This document shows positions 1,148 through 15,227 of a DNA stretch of 15,227 bases, one piece after another. The position numbers were made by a program, and so were the translations under genes. The notes under the pieces are model-generated. The model had not been told where the DNA came from. It saw only the letters and a program-made list of their open reading frames with translations, and did no database searches. The stretch lies in the NCBI GenBank assembly GCA_013166835.1, contig JABLTI010000068.1:1-15227 (forward strand), read 5' to 3'. The DNA is from Promethearchaeati archaeon. GTDB taxonomy: Archaea > Asgardarchaeota > Heimdallarchaeia > JABLTI01. Within the stretch, counting starts at the first letter, position 1. Every line of letters starts with the position of its first letter.

Positions 1148-2485
1148 GTGGATAAGAATCCTGAAAAAGAAGAACAAAAAATCTCTTCAACAAATCCTGA
1201 GGAAGAATCACCGACAAAAGAAAAATATCGGATAGATATCGCAGGTACATTATTTTCAATGGTTTCTTCACCGAAAATACCCTGTGTATATCGTTTCTGG
1301 GCAACTATGAAGGATCTTGTAAAAGCAAATGATTTACAGCAAGCATTAGATAATATAATGCCTCGATTTCCTTATTTTCAAGTAAAACTCTCTCGGGGCT
1401 TTTTCTGGTATAAATGGAAAACAACTACAGATAAACCAGAAGTGATTAAGGTACCTGAATATCCATGTCAACATATTCCAATTAGATCTACTACAGTTTT
1501 CCCTTATAGAATAATAGCTAGTTATAATAAAATCATAGTAGAATTTAATCATAGCCTAACTGATGGTTTTGGAGGACTAACATTCCTGAAGGCTCTTATT
1601 GCAGAATATCTAAGAATACAAGGACATGTGATACATGATTGGGGGGATGTTTTCAGAGCAGATCAAAAACCTTCGCCAGAAGAGTTTGAATATTCTTATC
1701 GAAAGAATTTCAAGATTGGTATACCTAAGGTTGGTAAAATTTATCCTGCCTTCCATTTGCCTTATGATCGGGTAAAACCGGGTGTATCTCATGTAATAAA
1801 TGGTAAAACGAATGTTAATGATGTTCTCAAGGTAGCAAAAGAATGGAAAGTAACCTTAACAGAATTTTTAACCGCTATTTATATTGATGTTCTTCAAGAA
1901 ATCTTACACAATCTCCCTCGTAGACAATTTAGACGTCTTAAAAGACCTATTAGGATTATGTTCCCAATAAACGCAAGAAACATAATCCCATCCAAAACAA
2001 TGAGAAACTTTACCACCTTTATTTCACCAGGTATTGATCCTCGTCAAGGAAAATTTACTTTTAAAGAAATTATTGAATTAGTTCATCATTACAAATATCT
2101 ACACTTAACCGAGAAATCTATGATACAACAAATATCGAATTTTGTTGCATTGGCAGCTAATCCTGGTTTAGCAGTAGTACCTTATTTTTTAAAATTATTA
2201 TTCATAAAACCTTTCTATAGACAATCTGCGGAATCATTATTTTCAGCATTTCTAACAAATATGGGGAAAGCATCTATGCCAGTTGAATTAAGTGAAGAGA
2301 TACTAGATATCCAATTACTTCCTATGACTCATCTTTACTTCAAGTCAAGTTGTGCTATACTAACTTATTTCGATGATTTGAACATAAACTTTGTAAGAAA
2401 TGTTAAAGAAAAGAAGGTTGAAGAATTATTCTTTAATCGACTCGAGGAATTCGGAATAGAAGTAACTGTTTCTGAAACATTGTAA
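1148..2485 (+). CDS. CoA-dependent acyltransferase (condensation-domain / alcohol acetyltransferase-like superfamily)
   Basis: Catalytic HxxxDG motif (EFNHSLTDGFGG), LQQALDNIMPRFPYF, PINAR...TMRNF and TNMG segments; 445 aa; SD GGTGA before GTG. Confidence 0.8.
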   Translation: MDKNPEKEEQKISSTNPEEESPTKEKYRIDIAGTLFSMVSSPKIPCVYRFWATMKDLVKANDLQQALDNIMPRFPYFQVKLSRGFFWYKWKTTTDKPEVIKVPEYPCQHIPIRSTTVFPYRIIASYNKIIVEFNHSLTDGFGGLTFLKALIAEYLRIQGHVIHDWGDVFRADQKPSPEEFEYSYRKNFKIGIPKVGKIYPAFHLPYDRVKPGVSHVINGKTNVNDVLKVAKEWKVTLTEFLTAIYIDVLQEILHNLPRRQFRRLKRPIRIMFPINARNIIPSKTMRNFTTFISPGIDPRQGKFTFKEIIELVHHYKYLHLTEKSMIQQISNFVALAANPGLAVVPYFLKLLFIKPFYRQSAESLFSAFLTNMGKASMPVELSEEILDIQLLPMTHLYFKSSCAILTYFDDLNINFVRNVKEKKVEELFFNRLEEFGIEVTVSETL

Positions 2486-2788: not shown

Positions 2789-4297
2789 TTGAGTAAGGTC
2801 GAATTTAAACAACTTTCTCCAGCTGATTTCTTTTATCGTAATAGAGAGCTAGCTGGTTTTGATTCTCCAGTTAAAAGTCTATATACTGCCTTCAGAGAGA
2901 TCATTGAGAACTCTTTTGATGGGGCGGAAATCGGTGGAATCAATCCGGATATTTTCGTATCGATCAAAGAAAAATCAGAAGATGTGTATACGATTTTCAT
3001 ATCCGATAATGGTATTGGAATACCTGGAAATAAGGTACCAAAAGCCTTGGCAAAACTTCTTTTTGGTGGGAAATATGTTGAACGCCAATCTCGAGGGCAT
3101 TTTGGTCTAGGGGCATCTATGACTGTTTTATACTCACAAATCACAACAAATCTTCCAACACGTATCCTTAGTTGTACAAGAGGAAGTGATGTAATAGATG
3201 AATACCATTTAATGATTGATATCCAAAAAAATGAACCAATTATAAGATATCATAATCAAATACCAAATAAGAAGAAATGGCATGGAGTAGCTGTTGAAGT
3301 AAACATTGAAGGAGACTATAGAAGAGCTCATCCTAAAATATTGGATTATATTGAATCAACAGCATTGGTTGCCCCATATGCAAGTATTACGTTTATCGAT
3401 GCTTACGGTATTCTCTACAAATTCAACAAAGTTGTAGATGAAGTACCAAAACTTGGCAAAGCTGTTTTACCTCATCCAAGAGGAATTGATACTGAAAAAA
3501 TGCTGCGATTAATTAGAGTGGCAAGACAGAAATCTATGAAGAATTTCCTCACTAGCAATTTCCAACGTGTTGGTGATATAACAGCAACAAATTTCCTGAA
3601 ATATGTAAACATAAAACCTGACAAAGCCCCTGATCAGCTTGATCATGATGAAATCGTAAGATGTGTGCAAGGAATGAATTCTTTCGAAGACTTTCTTTCA
3701 CCTGAAACGAGGTGCCTATCACCTATAGGGGAAAATGTTCTAGAAGCTGGAATACGAAAAGAACTAGATCCGAAATTTATAACTACTGTGACCAGAAAAC
3801 CTCAAGCATATTCGGGGCATCCATTTGTTGTTGAAGTAGCCATGGCTTATGGGGGCAATAAAATTGAAACATCATCAGAACCTACACTGTTTCGTTTTGC
3901 AAATCGAATTCCATTGCTTTACGACCAATATGCTGATGTTGCTGCGAAAGTTATTCGCTCCTTTAATTGGCGGATGTATAAAGTTCCTCAAAGTGCAAAA
4001 CTAGCAATAATCACTCATATCGCTTCTACTAAAGTTCCTTATCGAACTGCTGGAAAAGAATCAATTTCAGATCGACCTGAATTGGAACGTGAAGTGAGAT
4101 TAGCCATGCAAGTTTGTGCCAGAAAGATGCGAGTCTACCTTTCTCGAATTGAGCGTGAAGAGCGATCTGCAAAAAGAGCAAGCATCTTTGAAAAGTACTT
4201 GCCATACATTGCACAATTTGCTACGAAGCTTAGTGGCAAAAAACAAGTTCCTCCTACAGATTTTGTAAAAGGAGGTAAGAAAGGAGATGACCAATAG
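2789..4297 (+). CDS. top6B: DNA topoisomerase VI subunit B
   Basis: SPADFFYRNRELAGF, GHKL motifs EIIENSFDG / DNGIGI / SRGHFGLG, PHPRG, H2TH region, GHPFVVE, RFANRIPLL, WxxY (WRMY), STKVPY...GKE; adjacent to top6A. Confidence 0.98.
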   Translation: MSKVEFKQLSPADFFYRNRELAGFDSPVKSLYTAFREIIENSFDGAEIGGINPDIFVSIKEKSEDVYTIFISDNGIGIPGNKVPKALAKLLFGGKYVERQSRGHFGLGASMTVLYSQITTNLPTRILSCTRGSDVIDEYHLMIDIQKNEPIIRYHNQIPNKKKWHGVAVEVNIEGDYRRAHPKILDYIESTALVAPYASITFIDAYGILYKFNKVVDEVPKLGKAVLPHPRGIDTEKMLRLIRVARQKSMKNFLTSNFQRVGDITATNFLKYVNIKPDKAPDQLDHDEIVRCVQGMNSFEDFLSPETRCLSPIGENVLEAGIRKELDPKFITTVTRKPQAYSGHPFVVEVAMAYGGNKIETSSEPTLFRFANRIPLLYDQYADVAAKVIRSFNWRMYKVPQSAKLAIITHIASTKVPYRTAGKESISDRPELEREVRLAMQVCARKMRVYLSRIEREERSAKRASIFEKYLPYIAQFATKLSGKKQVPPTDFVKGGKKGDDQ

Positions 4298-4315
4298 TCT
4301 CATAAGGTGAAAAAT

Positions 4316-5443
4316 ATGTCCAAAGAAACTAAAGAAAAAACTCATGCAGACAAAGTCAAAGATAAGTCATTTAAGAAACTCGTAGCACTTGGAAAAGATG
4401 TTTACAGTCAATTAGAAGAAGAAAAGTACCCGGATTTCGAAATGCCTTTACGTGCTAGTTCTAACATTTTCTACGATTTAAAAACAAGACAATATTCTGT
4501 TGGTAAGAAGAGAGTAAGAAGATCTGCCGGAAATGTTCGACATCTCAAACCATTCTTGCAAACAATGTTTGTAGCTTCTTTTGCTGCTCGGGATCTTTTG
4601 CAACCTGGTAGAACAAGCACCTTGAGAGACCTCTATTATTCCTCTGAATCAGCTATGGCAAAAATGTTCAATGACCAATCAGAATCTGATAATGTAATTA
4701 CTGATGTTGAAGCAATAATTGGAATGGCTCGAGAGGATTTCAACATTTTCCCAGATGCTAGGAGCACTATCTTCGGAGACCTCGTTGTCTCATTCCAGGA
4801 CAAGAAAACAAAACAGAAAAGAGAACTTAATCTAACATTTAATCCCGATGGGCAAACCATAGGCCCAACATTGGTCAAAAGTGATTTCGTAAAAACAGGT
4901 GCTGATAAAGTTATTTGCGTAGAATCAGGTGGTATGTTTCAAAGATTGATTGAAGAAGATGCTGATGAGCAATTCAACGCTATCTTAGTTCACCTCGCTG
5001 GTCAAGCACCAAGAGGAACTAGACGATTAATAAGAAGGATGAATCAAGAGCTAAAACTCCCTGTCTATGCATTTGTCGATGCTGATCCCTGGGGAATGCA
5101 CATCTATAATGTCATAGCTTCAGGTAGTGCTTCTGCTGCTCATTTAACTGGATTAACAACTCCTGATGCTATTTGGATGGGTTTAACTCCAACTGATATC
5201 ACTACCTATGATTTACCTACAGACAATTTTACTAAGGGAGACTTGAATCGAACTGTACAACTTATCAGAGATCCTCGCTATCAAAAACCATACCTCCAAA
5301 AGGAATTGAAGGTCTTTATGCAATTAAAGAAGAAAGCAGAGCAACAATCACTGACATCAAAAAGTCTTACTTTTGTTGTAGATGAGTATTTACCAGCAAA
5401 ATTCAATGAAATTGCAAAAATGCAAAGGGATGGAAAAATTTAG
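4316..5443 (+). CDS. top6A: DNA topoisomerase VI subunit A (Spo11 family)
   Basis: STLRDLYY (catalytic Tyr), FNDQSESD, TOPRIM Glu (VESGGMF) and DADPWG, KAEQQSL. Start moved to ATG 4316 because the ORF-track GTG at 4307 lies inside the SD AGGTGA. Confidence 0.98.
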   Translation: MSKETKEKTHADKVKDKSFKKLVALGKDVYSQLEEEKYPDFEMPLRASSNIFYDLKTRQYSVGKKRVRRSAGNVRHLKPFLQTMFVASFAARDLLQPGRTSTLRDLYYSSESAMAKMFNDQSESDNVITDVEAIIGMAREDFNIFPDARSTIFGDLVVSFQDKKTKQKRELNLTFNPDGQTIGPTLVKSDFVKTGADKVICVESGGMFQRLIEEDADEQFNAILVHLAGQAPRGTRRLIRRMNQELKLPVYAFVDADPWGMHIYNVIASGSASAAHLTGLTTPDAIWMGLTPTDITTYDLPTDNFTKGDLNRTVQLIRDPRYQKPYLQKELKVFMQLKKKAEQQSLTSKSLTFVVDEYLPAKFNEIAKMQRDGKI

Positions 5444-5529: not shown

Positions 5530-6147
5530 TTATTCTTGTTTTAGCAATTCCTTAATTTCTTGCAAAGTTGCTAGAATTTGCTGATTTACTCTTAATTGTT
5601 CTTGATATCCTAAATCTTGCTCTTCAACTTCTACACTAGCACGTGGTGTCATTGCTTGTAATGGTCTAATTTTTGCTATTAACTTATCATAGACTTCCTG
5701 GTAATTAACTAGTCCTTCTATGTTTTCTTCAGGTAAGGGTGTTCCACTATAACCAGCTGTGTGTAATCGTATGGTTCCAATTCCAAACATTCTATCAAAT
5801 AGACTTCTAAAAATAGCTAAATTTGTAACTGCACGGAAAGGTACATTTTTTTCGATTTTTTGAAAAACTCCACGACGGACTATCATTTCATTTACTTTTA
5901 ATTGGTAAATCATTGATTTATAGTAATATGAAAGATATATTATCCAGAGTATGTACCAAACTACAACTCCTCCTCCTGCAGCAAATAACACAATTAGAGC
6001 TGTTGTTTTATTTCCACCTCCAAAATATAATCCTAGGAAAATTGCTAGAACAATTATTAGACTGAAAAAGAGCCACATAAAAGAAACAAATTGTCTTTTT
6101 TGTAGATATTTTCTATCCGGACCAAATTCCATTAATTCTTTAGACAT
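5530..6147 (-). CDS. Membrane protein with bacterial PH domain (bPH_2 / YdbS-like)
   Basis: Two hydrophobic helices, then YQL...IVRRGVF...VPFRAVTNLAIFRSLFDRMFGIGTIRLHTAG...IEGL. Likely start ATG 6147 after GGAG; the ORF track uses TTG 6162. Confidence 0.88.
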   Translation of the reverse strand: MSKELMEFGPDRKYLQKRQFVSFMWLFFSLIIVLAIFLGLYFGGGNKTTALIVLFAAGGGVVVWYILWIIYLSYYYKSMIYQLKVNEMIVRRGVFQKIEKNVPFRAVTNLAIFRSLFDRMFGIGTIRLHTAGYSGTPLPEENIEGLVNYQEVYDKLIAKIRPLQAMTPRASVEVEEQDLGYQEQLRVNQQILATLQEIKELLKQE

Positions 6148-6165
6148 TTTATCATACTCCAATTT

Positions 6166-6777
6166 TTAGTGTTTGCGTTTTCCTATTAATTCTTTAATTT
6201 CTATGAATTCTTGTAGAATTGCCTTTCTAATTTCAATAATATCAGTTGATAAAACTTCAACAGGTAATTTTTCCTCAGCTTTAAGTGGAGTAATCCTACT
6301 GACAAGTTTTACACTGATCATTACTTTATCATAAATTTCATTGTAATTTGTTATCCCTTCTATCTTTAATTCAGGTGTTTTTTCCCCACTGTATCCTGCA
6401 GTTTGAATTTTTACCGAACCTATATAGAAGATTCTATCAATTGGATCTCTGGAAACTGTGATATTTGTTATAGATTGAAATGGGACAACTTTCACTTTTT
6501 TATGGAGAACTCCACGTTGAATGACTATTTCATGTTCTTCAATTTTATATTGAATTGATTTAAAGTAAAGAACATTAAAGATAATCCAACCTACTAGAAT
6601 AGTTGGAAATATAGCAGCCATTAAATACCAGAGAATTGGATCAAGTTCTATGTCTTTATCAAAATACCCTATTAAAATTGTTACTCCAAAAATAACAATT
6701 ACTGTGAAGAAAGCTACAATATTCCTTTTGTGTAAAAATCTTCCATGAGGTTTGAATGTTATTTCTTCCTTAATCAT
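6166..6777 (-). CDS. Membrane protein with bacterial PH domain (bPH_2 / YdbS-like), paralog of the downstream gene
   Basis: Two TM helices, then YKI...IQRGVL...VPFQSITNITVSRDPIDRIFYIGSVKIQTAGYSG...IEGI. Confidence 0.88.
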   Translation of the reverse strand: MIKEEITFKPHGRFLHKRNIVAFFTVIVIFGVTILIGYFDKDIELDPILWYLMAAIFPTILVGWIIFNVLYFKSIQYKIEEHEIVIQRGVLHKKVKVVPFQSITNITVSRDPIDRIFYIGSVKIQTAGYSGEKTPELKIEGITNYNEIYDKVMISVKLVSRITPLKAEEKLPVEVLSTDIIEIRKAILQEFIEIKELIGKRKH

Positions 6778-8926: not shown

Positions 8927-10132
8927 TTAGAAACCTTCAGTGAGTATTGGAGGTAGTATTGGGAACCATGCATCAAGAAGTGCTTTTTCATCTTTGGTTG
9001 CATTTTTTATCCAATCAAAGGATTCTAAGTCATCTAATCTTAAAAGACCATATATTAAAGAAGCTAATCCTTCTTGAGTCATCTCAAGTTTGCTGGGTTT
9101 TTCTCCTAGCTCTTCAACACTTAGTTTTCCATTTTGAGATGTTATTGAATAAGTTTGATTGTTTTGGAGACAATGGTCGTCTGATATTTTAACAGTGATT
9201 TTCCCTTCTGTTGCTACTGGCATATCCTCAAGAGTCAGTTTCACATTAATGATTCTCGTCATCCAGATATTTTCTGCTTTAATTTCAGTCATATAATGTC
9301 CATACAACCAAGGATAAAGTTCTGATTCGTAAGGAACTACTGGCATTGTTACCTCAACAACTTGATCCGCATATAGGTATAAGTAATGGTAAAGTGATTG
9401 ACGAGCTTGGGGTGTTAAGAATTTAATATCATTTATACTTATTTTCCCGGATTCAGACCAAGAAAATCCTTCCATAAAACCTTTGGTTGTGTATCTCATT
9501 ATACCTTCTGCTTTTCCTTTTGAATTAAACGCTACAACAAACCATCCAGGCCATTTCTCTTCCCACAATTTCCATCTCTTTTCATTTCTAACTATTCCTC
9601 CATGCACATTCTTGATTCTTGTATTGTAAATCTCTTTGTAGTGTTTGAAACCATCGCTTGGGTTCAATCTTTCTACTGTATAACCTTCAGGCAATTTTTT
9701 CCAGCGAACCATAAATTTAGGATTAAATTTAATGAATACATGAGGATTTGCATTTACATAACCATATGCTGCATAGAATGAATCTTTAAATGGATACAAG
9801 TTTGAAACAGCGAAATTTTCCTTTTCCATTTTATCAATAAGGAAATTCATAATTTCGCGAATATACCCTCTCCTTCTATACAATGGGTCAGTAACCACCA
9901 TTGCTATTCCCCCCATTTTCATTATTTTTCCTCTAACATTTTGATCAAAGGTTATCAATCTTATATTAGCAGCTATTATCCCATCAACTTCTATACAATA
10001 ATTCTCATCATATTGATATTCGAATCGCTCTTTGAATCGTTCAGCAAAAGCCTCTGGAGCAAACCCATAACTGAGAGCGTTTAATTCATTTATTCTTTCA
10101 TAATCTTCTGGTTTTGTTTGACGTATTTTCAT
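8927..10132 (-). CDS. Eis-like GNAT N-acetyltransferase (tandem GNAT + SCP2-like C-terminus)
   Basis: MGGIAMVVTDPLYRRRGY acetyl-CoA motif, LYPFKDSFYAAYGY, MTRIINV, ISDDHCLQNN, C-terminal Phe. Start moved to ATG 10132 (MKIRQ) to remove the overlap with the KH gene; 401 aa. Confidence 0.9.
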   Translation of the reverse strand: MKIRQTKPEDYERINELNALSYGFAPEAFAERFKERFEYQYDENYCIEVDGIIAANIRLITFDQNVRGKIMKMGGIAMVVTDPLYRRRGYIREIMNFLIDKMEKENFAVSNLYPFKDSFYAAYGYVNANPHVFIKFNPKFMVRWKKLPEGYTVERLNPSDGFKHYKEIYNTRIKNVHGGIVRNEKRWKLWEEKWPGWFVVAFNSKGKAEGIMRYTTKGFMEGFSWSESGKISINDIKFLTPQARQSLYHYLYLYADQVVEVTMPVVPYESELYPWLYGHYMTEIKAENIWMTRIINVKLTLEDMPVATEGKITVKISDDHCLQNNQTYSITSQNGKLSVEELGEKPSKLEMTQEGLASLIYGLLRLDDLESFDWIKNATKDEKALLDAWFPILPPILTEGF

Positions 10133-10151
10133 TAAAATCACGCCCTTCCTG

Positions 10152-10757
10152 TTATTTGGATTTCGCATCTCTTGAAGCTTTATCCCATAATTCTCTAGCA
10201 CTCAATCTGAACATCTGTGCTCTATCTTCTAGAAATGCATAAACAGAACCATGCTTGGATCCTTGGAGGAGCATATGGATAGCGTCTCGAGCGACTTTTA
10301 GTCGTTCATATGGACCAATTATCCCTATAGTATTTCCAAATACAGAAATTCTAGTTCCAGTTGTTTCTTCTATTATCTTTCTGGTTCTCCCTTCCTTTCC
10401 GATAATTCTTCCTCGAAATCGAAGTAATTTATTTGGATTTGTTCCAACAACTAATTTCATATTAATAATTTCTAGATACATCTCTTCATCTAGGAGTGCA
10501 AATGCTACTTGAGGATTGAAACCTCTTCCAACTGCGTGTACAATATCTCTTGCTTTTATCACTAAGAAAGGATCAGTCATTTTCGGTTTAGAAGCGATTA
10601 TCACTTCACCTGAACCACTATGAATATCTATCTCTACTCCAGCTAAATCTTCTAATCGTTTCTTAACTCTGCCAGATGGTCCTATAAGTGCTCCTATTCT
10701 ATTCTGGGGTATCGTGACAACAAATTTTGATACTTCTTCTACTGGTTGAAAATCCAC
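10152..10757 (-). CDS. dim2: KH-domain pre-rRNA processing protein (archaeal Dim2/Pno1)
   Basis: IPQNRIGALIGPSG, AVGRGFNP, RGRIIGKEGRTRKIIE, GSKHGSVY; SD GGAGG; canonical position after rio1. Confidence 0.95.
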   Translation of the reverse strand: MDFQPVEEVSKFVVTIPQNRIGALIGPSGRVKKRLEDLAGVEIDIHSGSGEVIIASKPKMTDPFLVIKARDIVHAVGRGFNPQVAFALLDEEMYLEIINMKLVVGTNPNKLLRFRGRIIGKEGRTRKIIEETTGTRISVFGNTIGIIGPYERLKVARDAIHMLLQGSKHGSVYAFLEDRAQMFRLSARELWDKASRDAKSK

Positions 10758-10825: not shown

Positions 10826-11707
10826 TTAAAATTCAAACGCTTTTACCTTATCAGTAAGCGGTTCTCCAGTCAGTTTTTCAAATAAATCTTCAGCCTCAAT
10901 CACATCCACTTTTTGAGCTTTGAAATATCTTGTGATATTTTTTATGTCTCGATAGAGAAATATCTCTACGTAGGAGTGATCAAGTAGGACTGCTTGTGAT
11001 ATATCAATGAAGTAGACTTTTGGAGTATATATCATATTATATTCTGATAGATCTGCATGAACTAATCCTGCACCATGGTAAAGTAACTCTAGATTATCTA
11101 GTACTTCCATATATGTTTTCCTGGGTTTCTTTAGTTTCACATCTTTCATAAGAGGGTAAGGTAATTCTTTTTTACCAATGAACTCCATAACGACAACGTC
11201 TTTTACACAAGTAATTGGTTTTGGAATGGATACTTTTGCTTTATATGCTCGAGATAGGTTTTTGAATTCCTTTTTTGCCCAAGCATAAACAAATGACCTT
11301 TGATCTCTCTTGATTCTTGCAAATCGTGGGTCACCTATAATATAGATCTGTAATCCTTTGAAGATATTAGTAGAAGTTCTATAGATCTTGATAGCTAATT
11401 CTGAACCATCAGGTGCGTATCCATGGTAAACATTAGCTTCTTTTCCAGTTGAAATAACACCCGTCATATAATCAATTATTTTCCTTTTTCGCAAATTGAA
11501 TAGAGTTGTTTTGGTTTCAACGTCAAGAACAGATTCAGCTACCTTTAATGCGTCACTGTCCTTTACTTTGATGTTCTTCTCATCAATTTTATCTATCTGT
11601 AATTGATCTGCATCCTTTAGCTCTCTTGTAATCCTAATATCCTCTTCTACTTCTAGTAATTCTTCTTCTGCTTTTTGTTTTTTTGATCGTTTTTTCTTCT
11701 TGGGCAT
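10826..11707 (-). CDS. rio1: RIO1 serine/threonine protein kinase
   Basis: ISTGKEANVY, AIKIYRTS, YIIGDPRF, WAKKEFKNL, VMEFIG, LVHADLSEYN, IDISQ; SD GGAGGTGA. Confidence 0.96.
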   Translation of the reverse strand: MPKKKKRSKKQKAEEELLEVEEDIRITRELKDADQLQIDKIDEKNIKVKDSDALKVAESVLDVETKTTLFNLRKRKIIDYMTGVISTGKEANVYHGYAPDGSELAIKIYRTSTNIFKGLQIYIIGDPRFARIKRDQRSFVYAWAKKEFKNLSRAYKAKVSIPKPITCVKDVVVMEFIGKKELPYPLMKDVKLKKPRKTYMEVLDNLELLYHGAGLVHADLSEYNMIYTPKVYFIDISQAVLLDHSYVEIFLYRDIKNITRYFKAQKVDVIEAEDLFEKLTGEPLTDKVKAFEF

Positions 11708-11853: not shown

Positions 11854-12255
11854 TTAATCTAATTTAATATAACCTTTCTTTTCTAACCAATCAGCTTGAT
11901 TTCTATTATAGCGATATACTAAATATGCACGAGTATTCACTTGGGTCTCAAAATCATACCAAGGCATAACACTTACGATATCATTTTGTCTAGTCCAAAG
12001 TCTTTTCCTGAATTTCCCAGGAATTATTACAATTCTTGTATGACCATCTGTACACCGAACTTGAAGTCGATCTGCTCCAAGGATCTGTGTGACAACACCA
12101 AGAACTTCACCTTCCTTAGGTAATCTGACTCTGATAGTTTCAGGTTGCCCTGTTGCTCCAGTGATTTTTATAGAAACGGATGGGTCTCTATCGTAACTCC
12201 TGCGTCTCTTTTGACCTTTTTTTGGTTTTCCTTTTTTCTGGCTTAAATTTTTCAC
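11854..12255 (-). CDS. eif1a: Translation initiation factor aIF-1A, with long basic N-terminal extension
   Basis: RVRLPKEGEVLGVVTQILGADRLQVRCTDG...IPGKFRKRLW...DIV...PW...YRY...ADWLEKKGYI OB-fold signature; upstream of rio1. Confidence 0.96.
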   Translation of the reverse strand: MKNLSQKKGKPKKGQKRRRSYDRDPSVSIKITGATGQPETIRVRLPKEGEVLGVVTQILGADRLQVRCTDGHTRIVIIPGKFRKRLWTRQNDIVSVMPWYDFETQVNTRAYLVYRYNRNQADWLEKKGYIKLD

Positions 12256-12296
12256 ATTCCTTTAAATTATGATACTAAAAGGTAGTTTGGGTCTCT

Positions 12297-12314
12297 AACT
12301 AAAAAGTCTTTGGA
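12297..12314 (-). promoter_or_regulatory. Putative BRE/TATA promoter of the aIF-1A-rio1-KH operon
   Basis: Minus strand CCAAAGACTTTTTAG about 45 nt upstream of GTG 12255; same core as the GGR promoter. Confidence 0.5.
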
Positions 12315-12526
12315 TTAAAAGGTGCGTTTTTGCTGTTTTTTTCAATTTTCAACACTTTTCTCTCATAATTTGATATAAATTGAATGTTTTTGATCACTTA
12401 TTGGTCAATAGAAATCAATAAGATAGGTAGAAACTTTTATGAGAAAAAATTATATTATAGATTAATCATTAACACAATGACAAGTGGCTGTTAATAATAA
12501 GTAATAGGCAGAATGAGGGTTTTTGA

Positions 12527-13570
12527 GTGAATTCAAGGAGAAATGTGATTATACAGAATAATTCTTCTGATGAAAATATCTATCTTAGTAAGGTGCTTTT
12601 GTTCACTCAAGATGCTATTGGTTTAGCAGAAAACCTCAAAGCTTTTTCAGAATCCACAGTTAATACAAATTGTTTGAATACTATAGGTATGTATCCTCTA
12701 ATTTTTCGATTAGAAACTCCTCTTGGTAAATTGTGTATGTCTATTTGGATCATTAATGATAGTCCTCGTTTCAATCAATTCAGAATGGCTTATTACTCGG
12801 GTTCATCACATTCGGTAATTCTATTTAGCGATCAAGAAGAAAATGAAAATATCTCCAATTTATATTCTATAACACCTCAAGGTGTTCCAACAACAATTCT
12901 TAAAGTTGGAAATAACATTGAAAATTCCGAAAATACTCTCCCGAATTCTATCCCTGATGAAGAACATCGAAGTCCAATATACTTCAAAACAATTAGTGAA
13001 ATACAAACGATTTCAACAGTTTTTAATGAGATAGGAATGAAAATCGCTCAGGATATTCTTTCTGGTGAATATCAGACTTTCTCACCTCAATTAATTAAAC
13101 CTTCAAATGTCTTCAAACTTTATAACAAGAAATCGTTTGATAAAGCTCAAAGTTTAGTAAAACGATTAGGTTATGATCTTCAAGAAAATGGCATAGTTAC
13201 GATTATAAAAGATGGATTCACTTTTGATATTGATTTCTATCGAAATCAAGTGAAAGCATTCATAACCTCTTGTCTTGATTGTGAAAAAGGATGCAAACAC
13301 TATCGAAAATTGTGTGTTATTGAAGAAGATCAAGGTTTTTCTAATTTCATTCATTTTGATAATTTACGTGCTCTAGCTATACTCTATTCTATTCATGATG
13401 GTAATTTTGTGAACTTAATTGGTGCACGAAAACATGAGGACATCGATTATCAATTAAAGAAACTGAGGAGCTTATACGAAGTAAATTGTGATTATCATAA
13501 GGATGAACAATCCTTTTTGGAACTAGAATCTCAGAACTCGAAAAAAGCTAAACGTCTTCGAAAGAAATAA
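12527..13570 (+). CDS. Rab-like small GTPase-fold protein with degenerate G motifs (pseudo-GTPase) fused to a Cys/His-rich C-terminal domain
   Basis: Residues 22-101 align without gaps, by eye, to the Rab1-type consensus (KVLL..G / TIG / IW....RF....YYxG). G1, G3 and G4 are degenerate. C-terminal CLDCEKGCKH..C..C..H and a KKAKRLRKK tail. Alternative start GTG 12545 after AGGAG. Confidence 0.8.
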   Translation: MNSRRNVIIQNNSSDENIYLSKVLLFTQDAIGLAENLKAFSESTVNTNCLNTIGMYPLIFRLETPLGKLCMSIWIINDSPRFNQFRMAYYSGSSHSVILFSDQEENENISNLYSITPQGVPTTILKVGNNIENSENTLPNSIPDEEHRSPIYFKTISEIQTISTVFNEIGMKIAQDILSGEYQTFSPQLIKPSNVFKLYNKKSFDKAQSLVKRLGYDLQENGIVTIIKDGFTFDIDFYRNQVKAFITSCLDCEKGCKHYRKLCVIEEDQGFSNFIHFDNLRALAILYSIHDGNFVNLIGARKHEDIDYQLKKLRSLYEVNCDYHKDEQSFLELESQNSKKAKRLRKK

Positions 13571-13580
13571 GAGACGAATA

Positions 13581-13587
13581 TTTTTTT
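13581..13587 (+). terminator. Oligo-T tract, possible archaeal terminator
   Basis: T7 run 10 nt after the stop at 13570. Confidence 0.35.
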
Positions 13588-13703
13588 AACTAATTCTAAT
13601 TGCTCATTAACAAAGAATCATATATTTAAAGGAAAATCTGTATTTTGTTATTACTAATAGGTACAAAATCGCAAAATATCAAGTAGTTGTTTTGGTGTTA
13701 TTG

Positions 13704-15227
13704 ATGAGTATACAAAAAGAAAATGTTATTCCATTTATTATGAGTCCGAAGGATGAGATTGTTCCTCTTGAAGCCGAATTTGCTTACATTGTCGGTGTTG
13801 TTGGAGATAAAATAAAGAAGGGTGGGATTTTCAAACGTTCCAAGGAACAATTAACTCAAGTCTCAAAATTCTATTGGCGATTAATGGTTGATACAATTCA
13901 CAACCGAATTATCCTGGTAGACTCCTTAGGAATTTATGGCGGTGGTGCAGAAGTTCAAGACTTATCATTATCAAATGTTTTTGCACAGCTAAAAGCCATA
14001 CAAGATGCAACTACTGTTAAAGCCTATACTGAGAATTTAGAGGAAGCCAATCAAGTTCTTATCTTAGCAACTGATAATTATCCGTTATTTGATGAAGAAT
14101 TCACACGTTCCACACTTGAATTAGTTAAACGTAGTGTCAGTGAGGATATGATCGATACTCCACTTATTTTGCCTTCTTTCGAAGACACAATGAGCAGCGA
14201 ATTGGTTCAATTGTTGAATGAAACTCCGAGATTTGATGAAGGACAAGAAATTTTACGAGAATTAGCTCAACAATGGCTTGCAGAAATAAATTCAGAAATC
14301 ACTACTATCGAACGAGATTATGCTGGGAGAATTGCTCGTAGACAAAGTGAAGTTGAAACTCGACTTGTACAGTATAAAGAGAAAATGGATCAAACAATTG
14401 ATTCCAATCTCGAAAAGGCAAACGAAGCGACTTTCAGAGAATTATCTAAATTCGAATCTAGTACTTTAGGATTAACAGGAATGATAAATCCTATTCAAGA
14501 GCATGCAAGGCAAATTCTTAATGAAGTGCCATCCATTGAAACACCCAAATTCCAAGAAAGTATGAAGAGTTTTCTAAATAAATCCAAAGGCCAAATAGAA
14601 AATATCTCTTCGAAAGTTAAAGAAATGGATGAAGATCGAAAAAATTTGGCAAAAGCGATCAATGGTATCACTAAAAAATTCATGGATGCTAAACAAAGTG
14701 CAATTGATGAATATGAAAATAATAAGGCTGTAGCTGAAAGAGAAGTTGATGAATTACGCATGACTCGAGATAGAGCATTGTCGAATCTTATGGAAATGCG
14801 AGAAAGTATAAAACAAAACACTGATTCAATTTGTAAGAAATTACAAAAAGTCCAGCAGAATCGTAAAGAAGCAATAAACAAGTCGACAACAAGTAGTAGT
14901 GCAGATATTCCAACAGATATTATTATTTCATTATACTTGATAAAATTCCAAGAGAAGAATGATATCAGATACTTTGTAATACCACCTTTAATTAGCCAAA
15001 GAGGTAGACGAGGAGCTGATTACCCAAATGCTGAAATGGATTCAGCTATTATTGGTGGAAAGAAGGTTGCTGACAAGCTCGCGGAAGAATTAGTATTTAA
15101 CCGAAGATTAAAAACCTCATTTGATGCTCTACGAGCAACCAACTACCTTGCAACTAGTGAATTTGTAGGGGCAGTTAGACAAGGTTTGGATTACCTTGTA
15201 CAAAACGAAATGCTAAGTAAGAAGGGG
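13704..15227 (+). CDS. Uncharacterised coiled-coil protein (>508 aa, truncated at the right edge)
   Basis: Open frame from ATG 13704 to the window end, absent from the ORF track because it has no stop: MSIQKENVIPFIMSPKDEIVPLEAEFAYIVG...KKGGIFKRSKEQLTQVSKFYW...; E/K/Q/R-rich heptad region at about 14240-14880; then ISLYLIKF...RYFVIPPL...VRQGLDYLVQNEMLSKKG. GGTG lies upstream of the ATG. Confidence 0.9.
   Translation, partial: MSIQKENVIPFIMSPKDEIVPLEAEFAYIVGVVGDKIKKGGIFKRSKEQLTQVSKFYWRLMVDTIHNRIILVDSLGIYGGGAEVQDLSLSNVFAQLKAIQDATTVKAYTENLEEANQVLILATDNYPLFDEEFTRSTLELVKRSVSEDMIDTPLILPSFEDTMSSELVQLLNETPRFDEGQEILRELAQQWLAEINSEITTIERDYAGRIARRQSEVETRLVQYKEKMDQTIDSNLEKANEATFRELSKFESSTLGLTGMINPIQEHARQILNEVPSIETPKFQESMKSFLNKSKGQIENISSKVKEMDEDRKNLAKAINGITKKFMDAKQSAIDEYENNKAVAEREVDELRMTRDRALSNLMEMRESIKQNTDSICKKLQKVQQNRKEAINKSTTSSSADIPTDIIISLYLIKFQEKNDIRYFVIPPLISQRGRRGADYPNAEMDSAIIGGKKVADKLAEELVFNRRLKTSFDALRATNYLATSEFVGAVRQGLDYLVQNEMLSKKG

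Follow-up and report, generated by a model that had tools for sequence, protein, structure and literature searches.

A Rab-derived small-GTPase fold lacking four G motifs and a neighbouring coiled-coil hairpin protein in Heimdallarchaeia

Small GTPases of the Rab family (Ypt1/Rab1, Rab8, and Rab11) and the Asgard protein Thor-Rab, in the accessible part of its description (PMC10933270), have the same fold as the product of ORF1, one of the two neighbouring genes analysed in this study. ORF1 and the following gene, ORF2, lie at the right end of a 15,227-nucleotide stretch of DNA, here called the window, from a Promethearchaeati archaeon of the Heimdallarchaeia (contig JABLTI010000068.1, assembly GCA_013166835.1). 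ORF1 has kept several Rab features, namely the TIG sequence with the switch I threonine, the interswitch tryptophan, and the YYxG(A/S) motif of switch II. Unlike Rabs, it has lost the P-loop, DxxGQ, NKxD, and SAK motifs, has a variable insert in place of helix 4, and carries about 165 extra C-terminal residues with a cluster of four cysteines (Cys4) and a polybasic tail. Both Thor-Rab, as far as the available text goes, and ORF1 are without a C-terminal prenylation cysteine. That text reports structurally characterised Asgard Rab-like GTPases, and a pseudoGTPase is not mentioned in the part available (PMC10933270).

Among described proteins, AAGAB would be the nearest functional analogue of ORF1. 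According to the accessible part of the source (PMC12490416), AAGAB is a pseudoGTPase of class I whose binding partners are adaptor sigma subunits, and AAGAB and Irc6 have, like ORF1, an N-terminal GTPase-like domain that is seemingly unable to bind nucleotide and is followed by a C-terminal domain. The Pfam family of the AAGAB partner, Clat_adaptor_s, also matches the extension of one fused ORF2 homologue, which is described below. In contrast, there is no detectable sequence relationship between AAGAB and ORF1, which is archaeal and has the Cys4 domain. The interface of AAGAB lies away from its switch regions in the same part of the source (PMC12490416), whereas the switch equivalent is what ORF1 conserves most.

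Three other systems resemble the pair in part. The first is Rab11 with its exchange factor SH3BP5: the top Foldseek match of ORF1 is the Rab11a chain of 6ixv, the highest TM score on the target belongs to the Rab11a chain of 6djl, and SH3BP5 chains are found at ranks 24, 26, 32, and 49 among the Foldseek matches of ORF2. However, the SH3BP5 matches are those of a generic antiparallel coiled coil (TM on the query 0.13-0.17, rmsd 24-28 Å), and Smc arms and pore-forming toxins match equally; the likeness was therefore given no weight. Unlike SH3BP5, ORF2 has a large conserved head, and unlike Rab11, ORF1 has no nucleotide to exchange. The second system is SMC/Rad50, in which N- and C-terminal parts are likewise joined by a long antiparallel coiled coil with a conserved distal tip. 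Fragments of Smc arms, and of the arms only, are among the Foldseek matches of ORF2. Unlike SMC/Rad50, ORF2 lacks a hinge domain and an ATPase head (neither SMC_N nor AAA is matched in Pfam), and its arm is about one third as long. The third comprises the longin platforms, such as Mon1/Fuz/HPS1, the adaptor sigma chain, and the longin and roadblock proteins of Asgard archaea in the accessible part of their survey (bioRxiv 10.1101/2020.10.19.343400). Distant full-length homologues of ORF2 start with a longin-type domain; the ORF2 of the window has no such domain, and the body of ORF2 has no described counterpart in those complexes, as far as these sources extend.

The G domain and C-terminal region of ORF1

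A word-based search returned 42 homologues of ORF1, 40 of which are 337-353 aa in length at 43-92% identity. Wherever an organism name is given, it is an Asgard group or Candidatus Heimdallarchaeota. The family alignment and the profile used below comprise 24 sequences. The Pfam Ras family (PF00071) matches residues 22-129 of ORF1 with 17.4 bits, under its gathering cut-off of 21.6 bits, and a precomputed Ras domain is present in one of the 42 homologues (P0018). When the profile was compared with PDB, 199 sequences were matched at E <= 1. The 60 matches listed are all Rab, Ypt, or Sec4 proteins, and the first among them is Ypt1 (E 2e-7, residues 17-182); on these 60 of the 199 matches, ORF1 is nearer in sequence to Rabs than to other branches of the Ras superfamily. 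The AlphaFold2 model of ORF1 (mean pLDDT 75.1) has the order b1-a1-b2-b3-a2-b4-a3-b5-(insert)-b6-a5, which is that of the small-GTPase fold, with helix 4 replaced by a variable insert modelled at low confidence. A Foldseek search of this model against PDB put Rab11a, Rab8a, and Rab1 on top (E 2e-9 to 1e-7), with TM scores on the target of 0.45-0.67 and identities of 11-21%. Among the matches listed, the only ones outside Rab/Ypt/Sec4 are a Ran chain and a predicted human GTPase without a name.

The five nucleotide-binding motifs of small GTPases are G1 (the P-loop, GxxxxGK[ST]), G2 (with the switch I threonine), G3 (DxxGQ), G4 (NKxD), and G5 (SAK). The P-loop of Ypt1, GNSGVGKS, corresponds to FTQDAIGLAE in ORF1, without the lysine or the serine/threonine, and this loss is common to all 24 aligned family members. 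The switch I threonine of G2 is kept (TIGVDF in Ypt1, TIGMYP in ORF1). At G3, WDTAGQE of Ypt1 is replaced by WIINDSP, in which IINDS is the equivalent of DTAGQ (family consensus WIISxxx), while NKxD and SAK, both present in Ypt1, fall in variable, non-matching columns of the ORF1 family; all three motifs are lost. The motifs specific to the Rab family (RabF) are IGVDF, KLQIW, RFrsiT, YYRGA, and LVYDIT, and partial counterparts are seen in ORF1 as IGMYP, MSIW, RFNQFR, and YYSGS in the family and Ypt1 alignments. ORF1 is thus a small-GTPase fold of Rab ancestry from which G1, G3, G4, and G5 have been lost. Held against the Rab family, it shows the fold and the nearest relatives of a Rab, whereas these four motifs and the prenylation motif are absent and the Pfam score stays under the cut-off. 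Judging from the motifs, ORF1 probably belongs to the class of pseudoGTPases that bind no nucleotide. The original prediction, which was made from the sequence of the window, had named it a pseudo-Rab, and the name is borne out by the Ras match below the cut-off, the Rab-type profile matches listed, the Rab-led Foldseek result, and the loss of the G motifs.

The most conserved part of the G domain is the equivalent of switch I, interswitch, and switch II. There, 14 of 44 columns are invariant and the majority fraction averages 0.80, versus 0.60-0.61 for the b4-b5 and b6-a5 segments. The idea that ORF1 retains the switch/interswitch surface of a Rab agrees with this maximum. The C-terminal domain is as conserved as the switch equivalent, with 23 of the 100 columns from residue 201 to 300 invariant, and two long helices are modelled in the C-terminal region by AlphaFold2. 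No Pfam match beyond noise was found for this domain at E <= 10, an Atlas search gave no usable match for it, and NCBIfam gave none for ORF1. The Cys4 cluster, with the pattern CxxCxxxC(xH)x6C, is a candidate metal site. In the polybasic tail, at least five K/R lie within the last 20 residues in 23 of the 24 family members. The ORF1 of the window has no prenylatable C-terminal cysteine motif and ends with RLRKK; one member, P0018, ends with ...KKKICS.

One homologue of ORF1, in a Heimdallarchaeota metagenome-assembled genome, has an in-frame TGA codon (L008:2453-2455; …KLDG*TEKEN…), after which the frame runs to the normal end at 2594. The TGA could be a sequencing error, the mark of a pseudogene, or a recoded codon.

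ORF2 and its longin-fused homologues

For ORF2, 35 close homologues were found at 45-97% identity, and 34 of them are 518-543 aa in length. The mean column identity of the family is 68% over the whole length. ORF2 matches no Pfam family, and both the NCBIfam scan and the comparison of the family profile with PDB gave only coiled-coil noise, in the latter case apolipoproteins, haemagglutinin HA2, and myosin, for example. The AlphaFold2 model (pLDDT 82.6) consists of an N-terminal alpha/beta domain, an antiparallel coiled-coil hairpin, and a C-terminal part (Table 1). The arms of the hairpin are about 110 residues in length, which corresponds by arithmetic to about 16 nm if fully extended. The RYFVIPP strand of the C-terminal part is found throughout the superfamily and is, together with the hairpin turn, among the best-conserved stretches of ORF2. 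A Foldseek search of the whole model against PDB returned generic coiled coils only (TM on the query at most 0.24), including stalks of pore-forming toxins, Smc arms, and SH3BP5. In the PADLOC models of defence systems, ORF1 has no match, and ORF2 has only weak coiled-coil matches (ZorA and JetC; E >= 4e-4, at most 17 bits). ORF2 belongs to an undescribed archaeal family, whose members are predicted by the model to have globular N- and C-terminal parts joined by a coiled-coil hairpin with a conserved tip. The original prediction of a coiled-coil protein was right about the long coiled coil, but this is only a part of ORF2, which has globular ends besides.

An ORF2 homologue with 84% identity (P0050) is called 'cytochrome c556' by one source. 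Neither its sequence nor the model supports this name, which seems to be an artefact of annotation that stems from a helical match.

The ORF2 profile was also searched against 1.84 billion cluster representatives at E <= 1e-3. This search returned 90 proteins, including three full-length representatives of the orthologues (E < 1e-185), a few fragments, and about 80 distant homologues, mostly 500-565 aa in length. Many of the distant homologues are aligned from residue ~5 to ~515, that is, end to end. The taxonomy of those with about 540 aa comes from Atlas cluster labels only: the look-alike clusters are labelled Thermoproteota, Promethearchaeota, and Bathyarchaeota (scores 0.94-0.95). Since these labels go beyond Asgard archaea, the ORF2 superfamily probably has members outside that group and a much broader distribution than the pseudo-Rab family.

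Six of the homologues are longer (650-701 aa), and their match to ORF2 begins at about residue 140 or later, after an extra N-terminal part of about 135 aa. An hhalign comparison of the ORF2 family with the six long forms gave a probability of 99.65% (E 3.9e-25) over 487 columns, in which ORF2 11-516 is aligned to 137-672. The N-terminal extension of P0086 matches Pfam Fuz_longin_1 with 30.1 bits (cut-off 26.1), and that of P0091 matches Clat_adaptor_s with 22.6 bits (cut-off 22.5), both above the cut-off. The extensions of P0127 (Fuz_longin_1, 20.4 bits) and P0123 (Longin, 16.7 bits) remain below it, and those of P0083 and P0128 have no Pfam match. The one fused homologue that was traced, P0086, has close relatives named Jordarchaeaceae, Lokiarchaeia, and Freyarchaeota, and a precomputed PF19036 domain is present in 6 of the 11 proteins listed in its search, P0086 itself counted. 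A profile of fused homologues found only coiled-coil noise in PDB. Longin domains are generally the platforms of small GTPases, and the accessible part of the Asgard survey says likewise (bioRxiv 10.1101/2020.10.19.343400). The longin fusion is thus a second, independent tie of the ORF2 family to GTPase-type regulation. It is a new lead in favour of the original prediction, in which the two genes form a pseudo-Rab and coiled-coil effector module.

Gene neighbourhood and transcription signals

How fixed is the position of ORF2 beside ORF1? A scan for the ORF1 pattern over one genome per GTDB species gave 9 loci, eight of which are labelled Heimdallarchaeota and one Bathyarchaeia. ORF2 directly follows ORF1 on the same strand in all 9. 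The aIF1A-RIO1 genes are divergent from ORF1 in all 8 loci with upstream DNA, and KH-GNAT come next in all 7 that reach so far. Five ORF1/ORF2 pairs have consecutive NCBI locus tags, and 19 pairs of ORF1 and ORF2 matches lie on equal-sized contigs. The searches found orthologues of ORF1 and ORF2 in one shared Heimdall-group lineage only, in every case next to each other. Thus, ORF1 and ORF2 are shown to be fixed neighbours in this group of Heimdallarchaeia. The locus with the Bathyarchaeia label (L005; DATKZI010000004.1, titled 'Candidatus Bathyarchaeia archaeon') has the same gene order from GNAT to MFS as the Heimdallarchaeota loci, and an ORF2 homologue, P0059, is also labelled Bathyarchaeia. 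The L005 bin is probably mislabelled or mixed.

In the window, aIF1A, RIO1, and KH are on the minus strand and ORF1 is on the plus strand, and transcription is therefore divergent over the spacer between aIF1A and ORF1. In the mechanical list of ORFs, the ORF2 frame is open from a TTG at 13692, and it leaves the window at 15227. The start common to the relatives is the ATG at 13704, so that exactly 133 nt (13571-13703) separate it from the ORF1 stop codon. The missing end of ORF2 is 13 codons, judging from the related locus L002. Direct reading of the sequence and the Pfam matches agree with the layout first described, in which ORF1 and ORF2 are co-oriented, 133 nt apart, and divergent from aIF1A-RIO1-KH.

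It had also been suggested that the module continues past the right edge of the window. In the related loci, an ORF of about 200 aa follows ORF2 in all 6 that extend far enough, and ORFs of about 411, 350, 610, and 625 aa come next in the same order in 5 of 5. By Pfam analysis of L002 and L006, the downstream genes encode an adenylate kinase, a myo-inositol-1-phosphate synthase, a HEAT-repeat protein, and two ABC exporters, followed by an MFS transporter in L006. Genes for roadblock or longin proteins, an active GTPase, actin, or ESCRT proteins were not found downstream of ORF2 in the relatives. The suggestion fails here, because these genes are not of the trafficking, cytoskeletal, or ESCRT kind. 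The adenylate kinase matches NCBIfam NF003122 with 190.3 bits in L002 and 195.8 bits in L006 (cut-off 155) and PDB 6pjw with E 5.6e-45. A Fap7-type kinase of ribosome biogenesis, which would tie the locus to RIO1 and KH, was considered for this P-loop gene and rejected, since it is an ordinary archaeal adenylate kinase.

The spacers between ORF1 and ORF2 are 110-154 nt in length in ten sequences. A run of at least five T follows the ORF1 stop codon in 9 of the 10, and ACAAAGNATCNTATA lies 67-94 nt upstream of the ORF2 ATG in 7 of the 10. Downstream of ORF2, the first possible start codon of the next ORF is 5-20 nt past the stop codon, and the likely ATG is at about 14-25 nt. A GGTGA-like motif is found in this gap in some loci (L002:2846-2865; L004, L005, L006, L007, and L009 were also compared). 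With a gap of a few to about 25 nt and this motif in some of the loci, ORF2 and the adenylate kinase gene (adk) look co-transcribed. Because the short gap leaves no space for a promoter and because of the signals between ORF1 and ORF2, the likely transcript units are ORF1 alone and ORF2-adk. The original prediction had itself warned that the T7 tract and a TATA-like element may mean separate transcripts, and the warning has gained weight, as the T run, the promoter-like element, and the Shine-Dalgarno-like spacing are conserved in 9, 7, and 9 of the ten sequences, respectively. ORF2 is an unusual co-transcription partner for a housekeeping adenylate kinase.

Table 1. Positions of the features of the ORF1-ORF2 region in the window
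Feature	Positions	Strand	Basis or remarks
KH protein, two KH domains	10152-10757	-	Pfam KH_1, 59.6 bits
RIO1	10826-11707	-	Pfam RIO1, 192.3 bits
aIF1A	11854-12255	-	First gene of the divergent aIF1A-RIO1-KH unit; Pfam eIF-1a, 62.9 bits
aIF1A/ORF1 divergent spacer, 271 nt	12256-12526	.	Direct sequence reading
ORF1, 347 aa, GTG start, GAGGG 6 nt 5′ of the start	12527-13570	+	Rab-derived, probable pseudoGTPase with C-terminal extension
ORF1 G-domain-like fold, residues 18-180	12578-13066	+	AlphaFold2, Ypt1 alignment, family alignment, Foldseek matches to Rabs
ORF1 switch I/interswitch/switch II equivalent, residues 49-92 (CLNTIGMYP ... SIWII ... RFNQFRMAYYSG)	12671-12802	+	Conservation peak of the G domain
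ORF1 C-terminal domain, residues 201-320	13127-13486	+	Conserved; no known family
ORF1 Cys cluster: C249, C252, C256, H258, C263	13271-13315	+	Columns invariant or nearly so in the 24-sequence alignment
ORF1 polybasic tail (...SKKAKRLRKK), without terminal cysteine	13517-13567	+	Family alignment
T7 tract, 11 nt 3′ of the ORF1 stop codon	13581-13587	+	Candidate archaeal oligo-T terminator
ACAAAGAATCATATA element overlapping TATATTTAAA (13621-13630)	13610-13630	+	Candidate BRE/TATA promoter of ORF2
GGTG, Shine-Dalgarno-like, 6-nt spacing to ATG 13704	13694-13697	+	Same spacing in 9 of 10 sequences
ORF2, 508 of ~521 codons inside the window	13704-15227	+	Member of an undescribed archaeal head-and-stalk family (predicted architecture)
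ORF2 N-terminal alpha/beta domain, residues 1-151; motifs VSKFYWR, DSLGxYG, IDTPLILPSFE	13704-14156	+	Model and alignment
ORF2 antiparallel coiled-coil hairpin, helices 165-274 and 281-394	14196-14885	+	AlphaFold2, pLDDT mostly >=90 there
ORF2 hairpin tip, residues 250-283 (FESSTLGLTGMINPIQE ... PSxETPKF)	14451-14552	+	Dense invariant or near-invariant columns; turn at 275-280
ORF2 C-terminal part, residues 395-508: beta-hairpin with RYFVIPP, then three helices	14886-15227	+	Cut by the window edge

The window is AT-rich (GC 0.27-0.38), and Rfam and tRNA scans of it gave no match. To the left of the KH gene, an Eis-like GNAT-SCP2 gene (8927-10201, minus strand) has a mechanical GTG start that reaches 50 nt into the end of the KH gene; its true start is probably the Met at residue 24, because the relatives align only from residues 4-24 on in most loci. 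A tandem pair of paralogous genes on the minus strand (5530-6777) encodes membrane proteins with bacterial PH domains (bPH_2, 45 and 60 bits). The pair is also present in L001, where its members are 33-36% identical to each other, and is absent from this position in the other loci. Topoisomerase VI B and A subunits are encoded in tandem on the plus strand (2789-5443) with 9 nt between them. These genes adjoin TfoX/GNAT in L004 and L009, while PALP and bPH genes intervene in the window and L001. Since the position of topoisomerase VI relative to the aIF1A block varies, gene order is looser on the left of the block than on the right. A 445-aa protein (1148-2485, plus strand), which is conserved 5′ of Top6B in L004 and L009, has a weak alcohol-acetyltransferase match of 18.5 bits, under the cut-off. 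I take its HSLTDGFG stretch to resemble the HHxxxDG motif of condensation-type acyltransferases.

Possible functions of the pair

What might the two proteins do? The best explanation as a whole, which I hold tentatively and a little short of an even call, is that ORF1 is a nucleotide-independent docking protein with ORF2 as its leading candidate partner. ORF1 would be unable to cycle nucleotide and would serve as a fixed module for docking, with partners bound by the frozen switch/interswitch face and the Cys4 domain and with the basic tail attached to an acidic surface, that of a membrane or of RNA. ORF2 would be a scaffold or tether with a stalk. Its counterpart in other Asgard lineages would carry a longin domain of its own, and in Heimdallarchaeia, the separately encoded pseudo-Rab might take the place of the longin domain or share its binding site. 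ORF2 is the best candidate because it always adjoins ORF1 and because its relatives would recruit GTPase-type proteins via the fused longin domain; taken by itself, the claim that it is the partner is somewhat unlikely. A complex prediction with ORF2 and ORF1 both given as alignments, without controls, had a score of 0.00 and a mark of 0.32, which speaks neither for nor against binding.

Several results weigh against the docking reading and its choice of partner. ORF2 has no match to the known Rab-binding or effector families, and residues 1-160 of the window ORF2 have no Pfam match at E <= 10. A longin domain hidden in the N-terminal domain of ORF2 was considered and rejected: hhalign against the longin extension of 16 fused homologues gave a probability of just 0.16%, and such a domain is thus unsupported by sequence. 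Since the ORF2 superfamily is wider than the pseudo-Rab family, the ORF2 fold is independent of a pseudo-Rab. There are terminator-like and promoter-like signals between ORF1 and ORF2, and ORF2 looks operonic with the adenylate kinase gene. Finally, the comparison of neighbourhoods found the pair adjacent and co-oriented in all nine loci, but this does not discriminate: the whole block is syntenic and its unrelated genes are equally conserved, so that adjacency says little on function. Of the module originally proposed, the pseudo-Rab, the coiled-coil neighbour, and their adjacency stand, whereas the trafficking context does not, no match of ORF2 to a known effector family was found, and the binding of ORF1 to ORF2 is hypothetical.

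The same observations are what would be expected if ORF1 and ORF2 were functionally unrelated neighbours in a stable syntenic block, with ORF2 having a structural or scaffolding role alone or with adenylate kinase and ORF1 having another partner. ORF1 is followed by a T run, and ORF2 by the adenylate kinase gene after a few to about 25 nt in all 6 loci; a promoter-like element and a Shine-Dalgarno site precede ORF2 itself. Flanking genes without any relation are conserved to the same degree, and the range of the ORF2 superfamily much exceeds that of the ORF1 family. However, this explanation does not readily account for the restriction of both sets of orthologues to one Heimdall-group lineage, where they always adjoin, and partners of the GTPase type are suggested by the longin domain fused to distant ORF2 homologues. 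I regard it as possible, if doubtful, and mere inheritance as neighbours is about as likely as the pairing of ORF1 with ORF2.

The docking reading can be taken further. A permanently 'frozen' Rab might dock by its switch face on the head or tip of a 16-nm stalked scaffold, with the polybasic tail holding the pair on a membrane, while the longin domain of the Jord-, Frey-, and Lokiarchaeial scaffold would recruit a live small GTPase. Such a pre-eukaryotic tether or GTPase platform would be a forerunner of the Rab-tether and longin-GEF (guanine nucleotide exchange factor) pairs. This extended picture is distinctly unlikely.

Two further explanations, both less likely than the pairing with ORF2 or inheritance as neighbours, concern ORF1 on its own. 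It may belong with aIF1A-RIO1-KH as a GTPase-derived binder of RNA or the ribosome that acts via the Cys4 domain and the basic tail, ORF2 being uninvolved. ORF1 shares the 271-nt divergent spacer with aIF1A in the window, aIF1A-RIO1 and ORF1 diverge in all 8 loci with upstream DNA, and a Cys4 cluster and a K/R-rich tail are generally common in nucleic-acid binders. However, the caveat of synteny holds here too, the nearest relatives of ORF1 are Rabs rather than GTPases of translation or ribosome biogenesis, and no RNA-binding family was found in the Pfam searches of ORF1; this role is very unlikely. The least probable explanation, to which I give little credence, is an assembly chaperone like AAGAB/Irc6, whose pseudoGTPase 'hand' and C-terminal 'hand' would hold subunits such as longin-fold proteins encoded elsewhere: the outline of an N-terminal Rab-like pseudoGTPase and a helical C-terminal region in the AlphaFold2 model is the same and the AAGAB domain binds AP sigma subunits in the accessible part of its description (PMC12490416), but the only Pfam family that ORF1 matches at E <= 0.01 is Ras, the 60 PDB matches and the Foldseek matches listed include no AAGAB chain, and the Cys4 domain has no AAGAB counterpart that I know of.

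The novelty of the locus is moderate and lies in a pseudoGTPase variant of the Asgard Rab-like proteins and an unnamed head-and-stalk family with a longin-fused branch. In the literature that could be searched, nothing was found on Asgard archaea and pseudoGTPases together, and the literature on pseudo-GTPases and archaea gave only unrelated work and nothing on the ORF1-ORF2 pair. Both families may already stand under unnamed asCOG numbers in the tables of the Asgard survey.

Eukaryotes have some of their closest known relatives in the Heimdallarchaeia, whose Rab-like GTPases, longin proteins, and roadblock proteins are the main genomic argument for a pre-eukaryotic organisation of membranes. 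To my knowledge, no partner is known for any Asgard Rab-like protein. As a conserved Rab-derived pseudoGTPase, ORF1 would offer a simple, nucleotide-independent handle for finding partners, and the strongly conserved ORF2 family, which is fused to longin elsewhere, is a concrete candidate scaffold. If ORF1 and ORF2 do not bind each other, the locus is a warning that conserved adjacency in a syntenic clade is no evidence of a module. If they do, ORF1 would be the first case in archaea of a Rab-type protein whose effector-like partner is defined.

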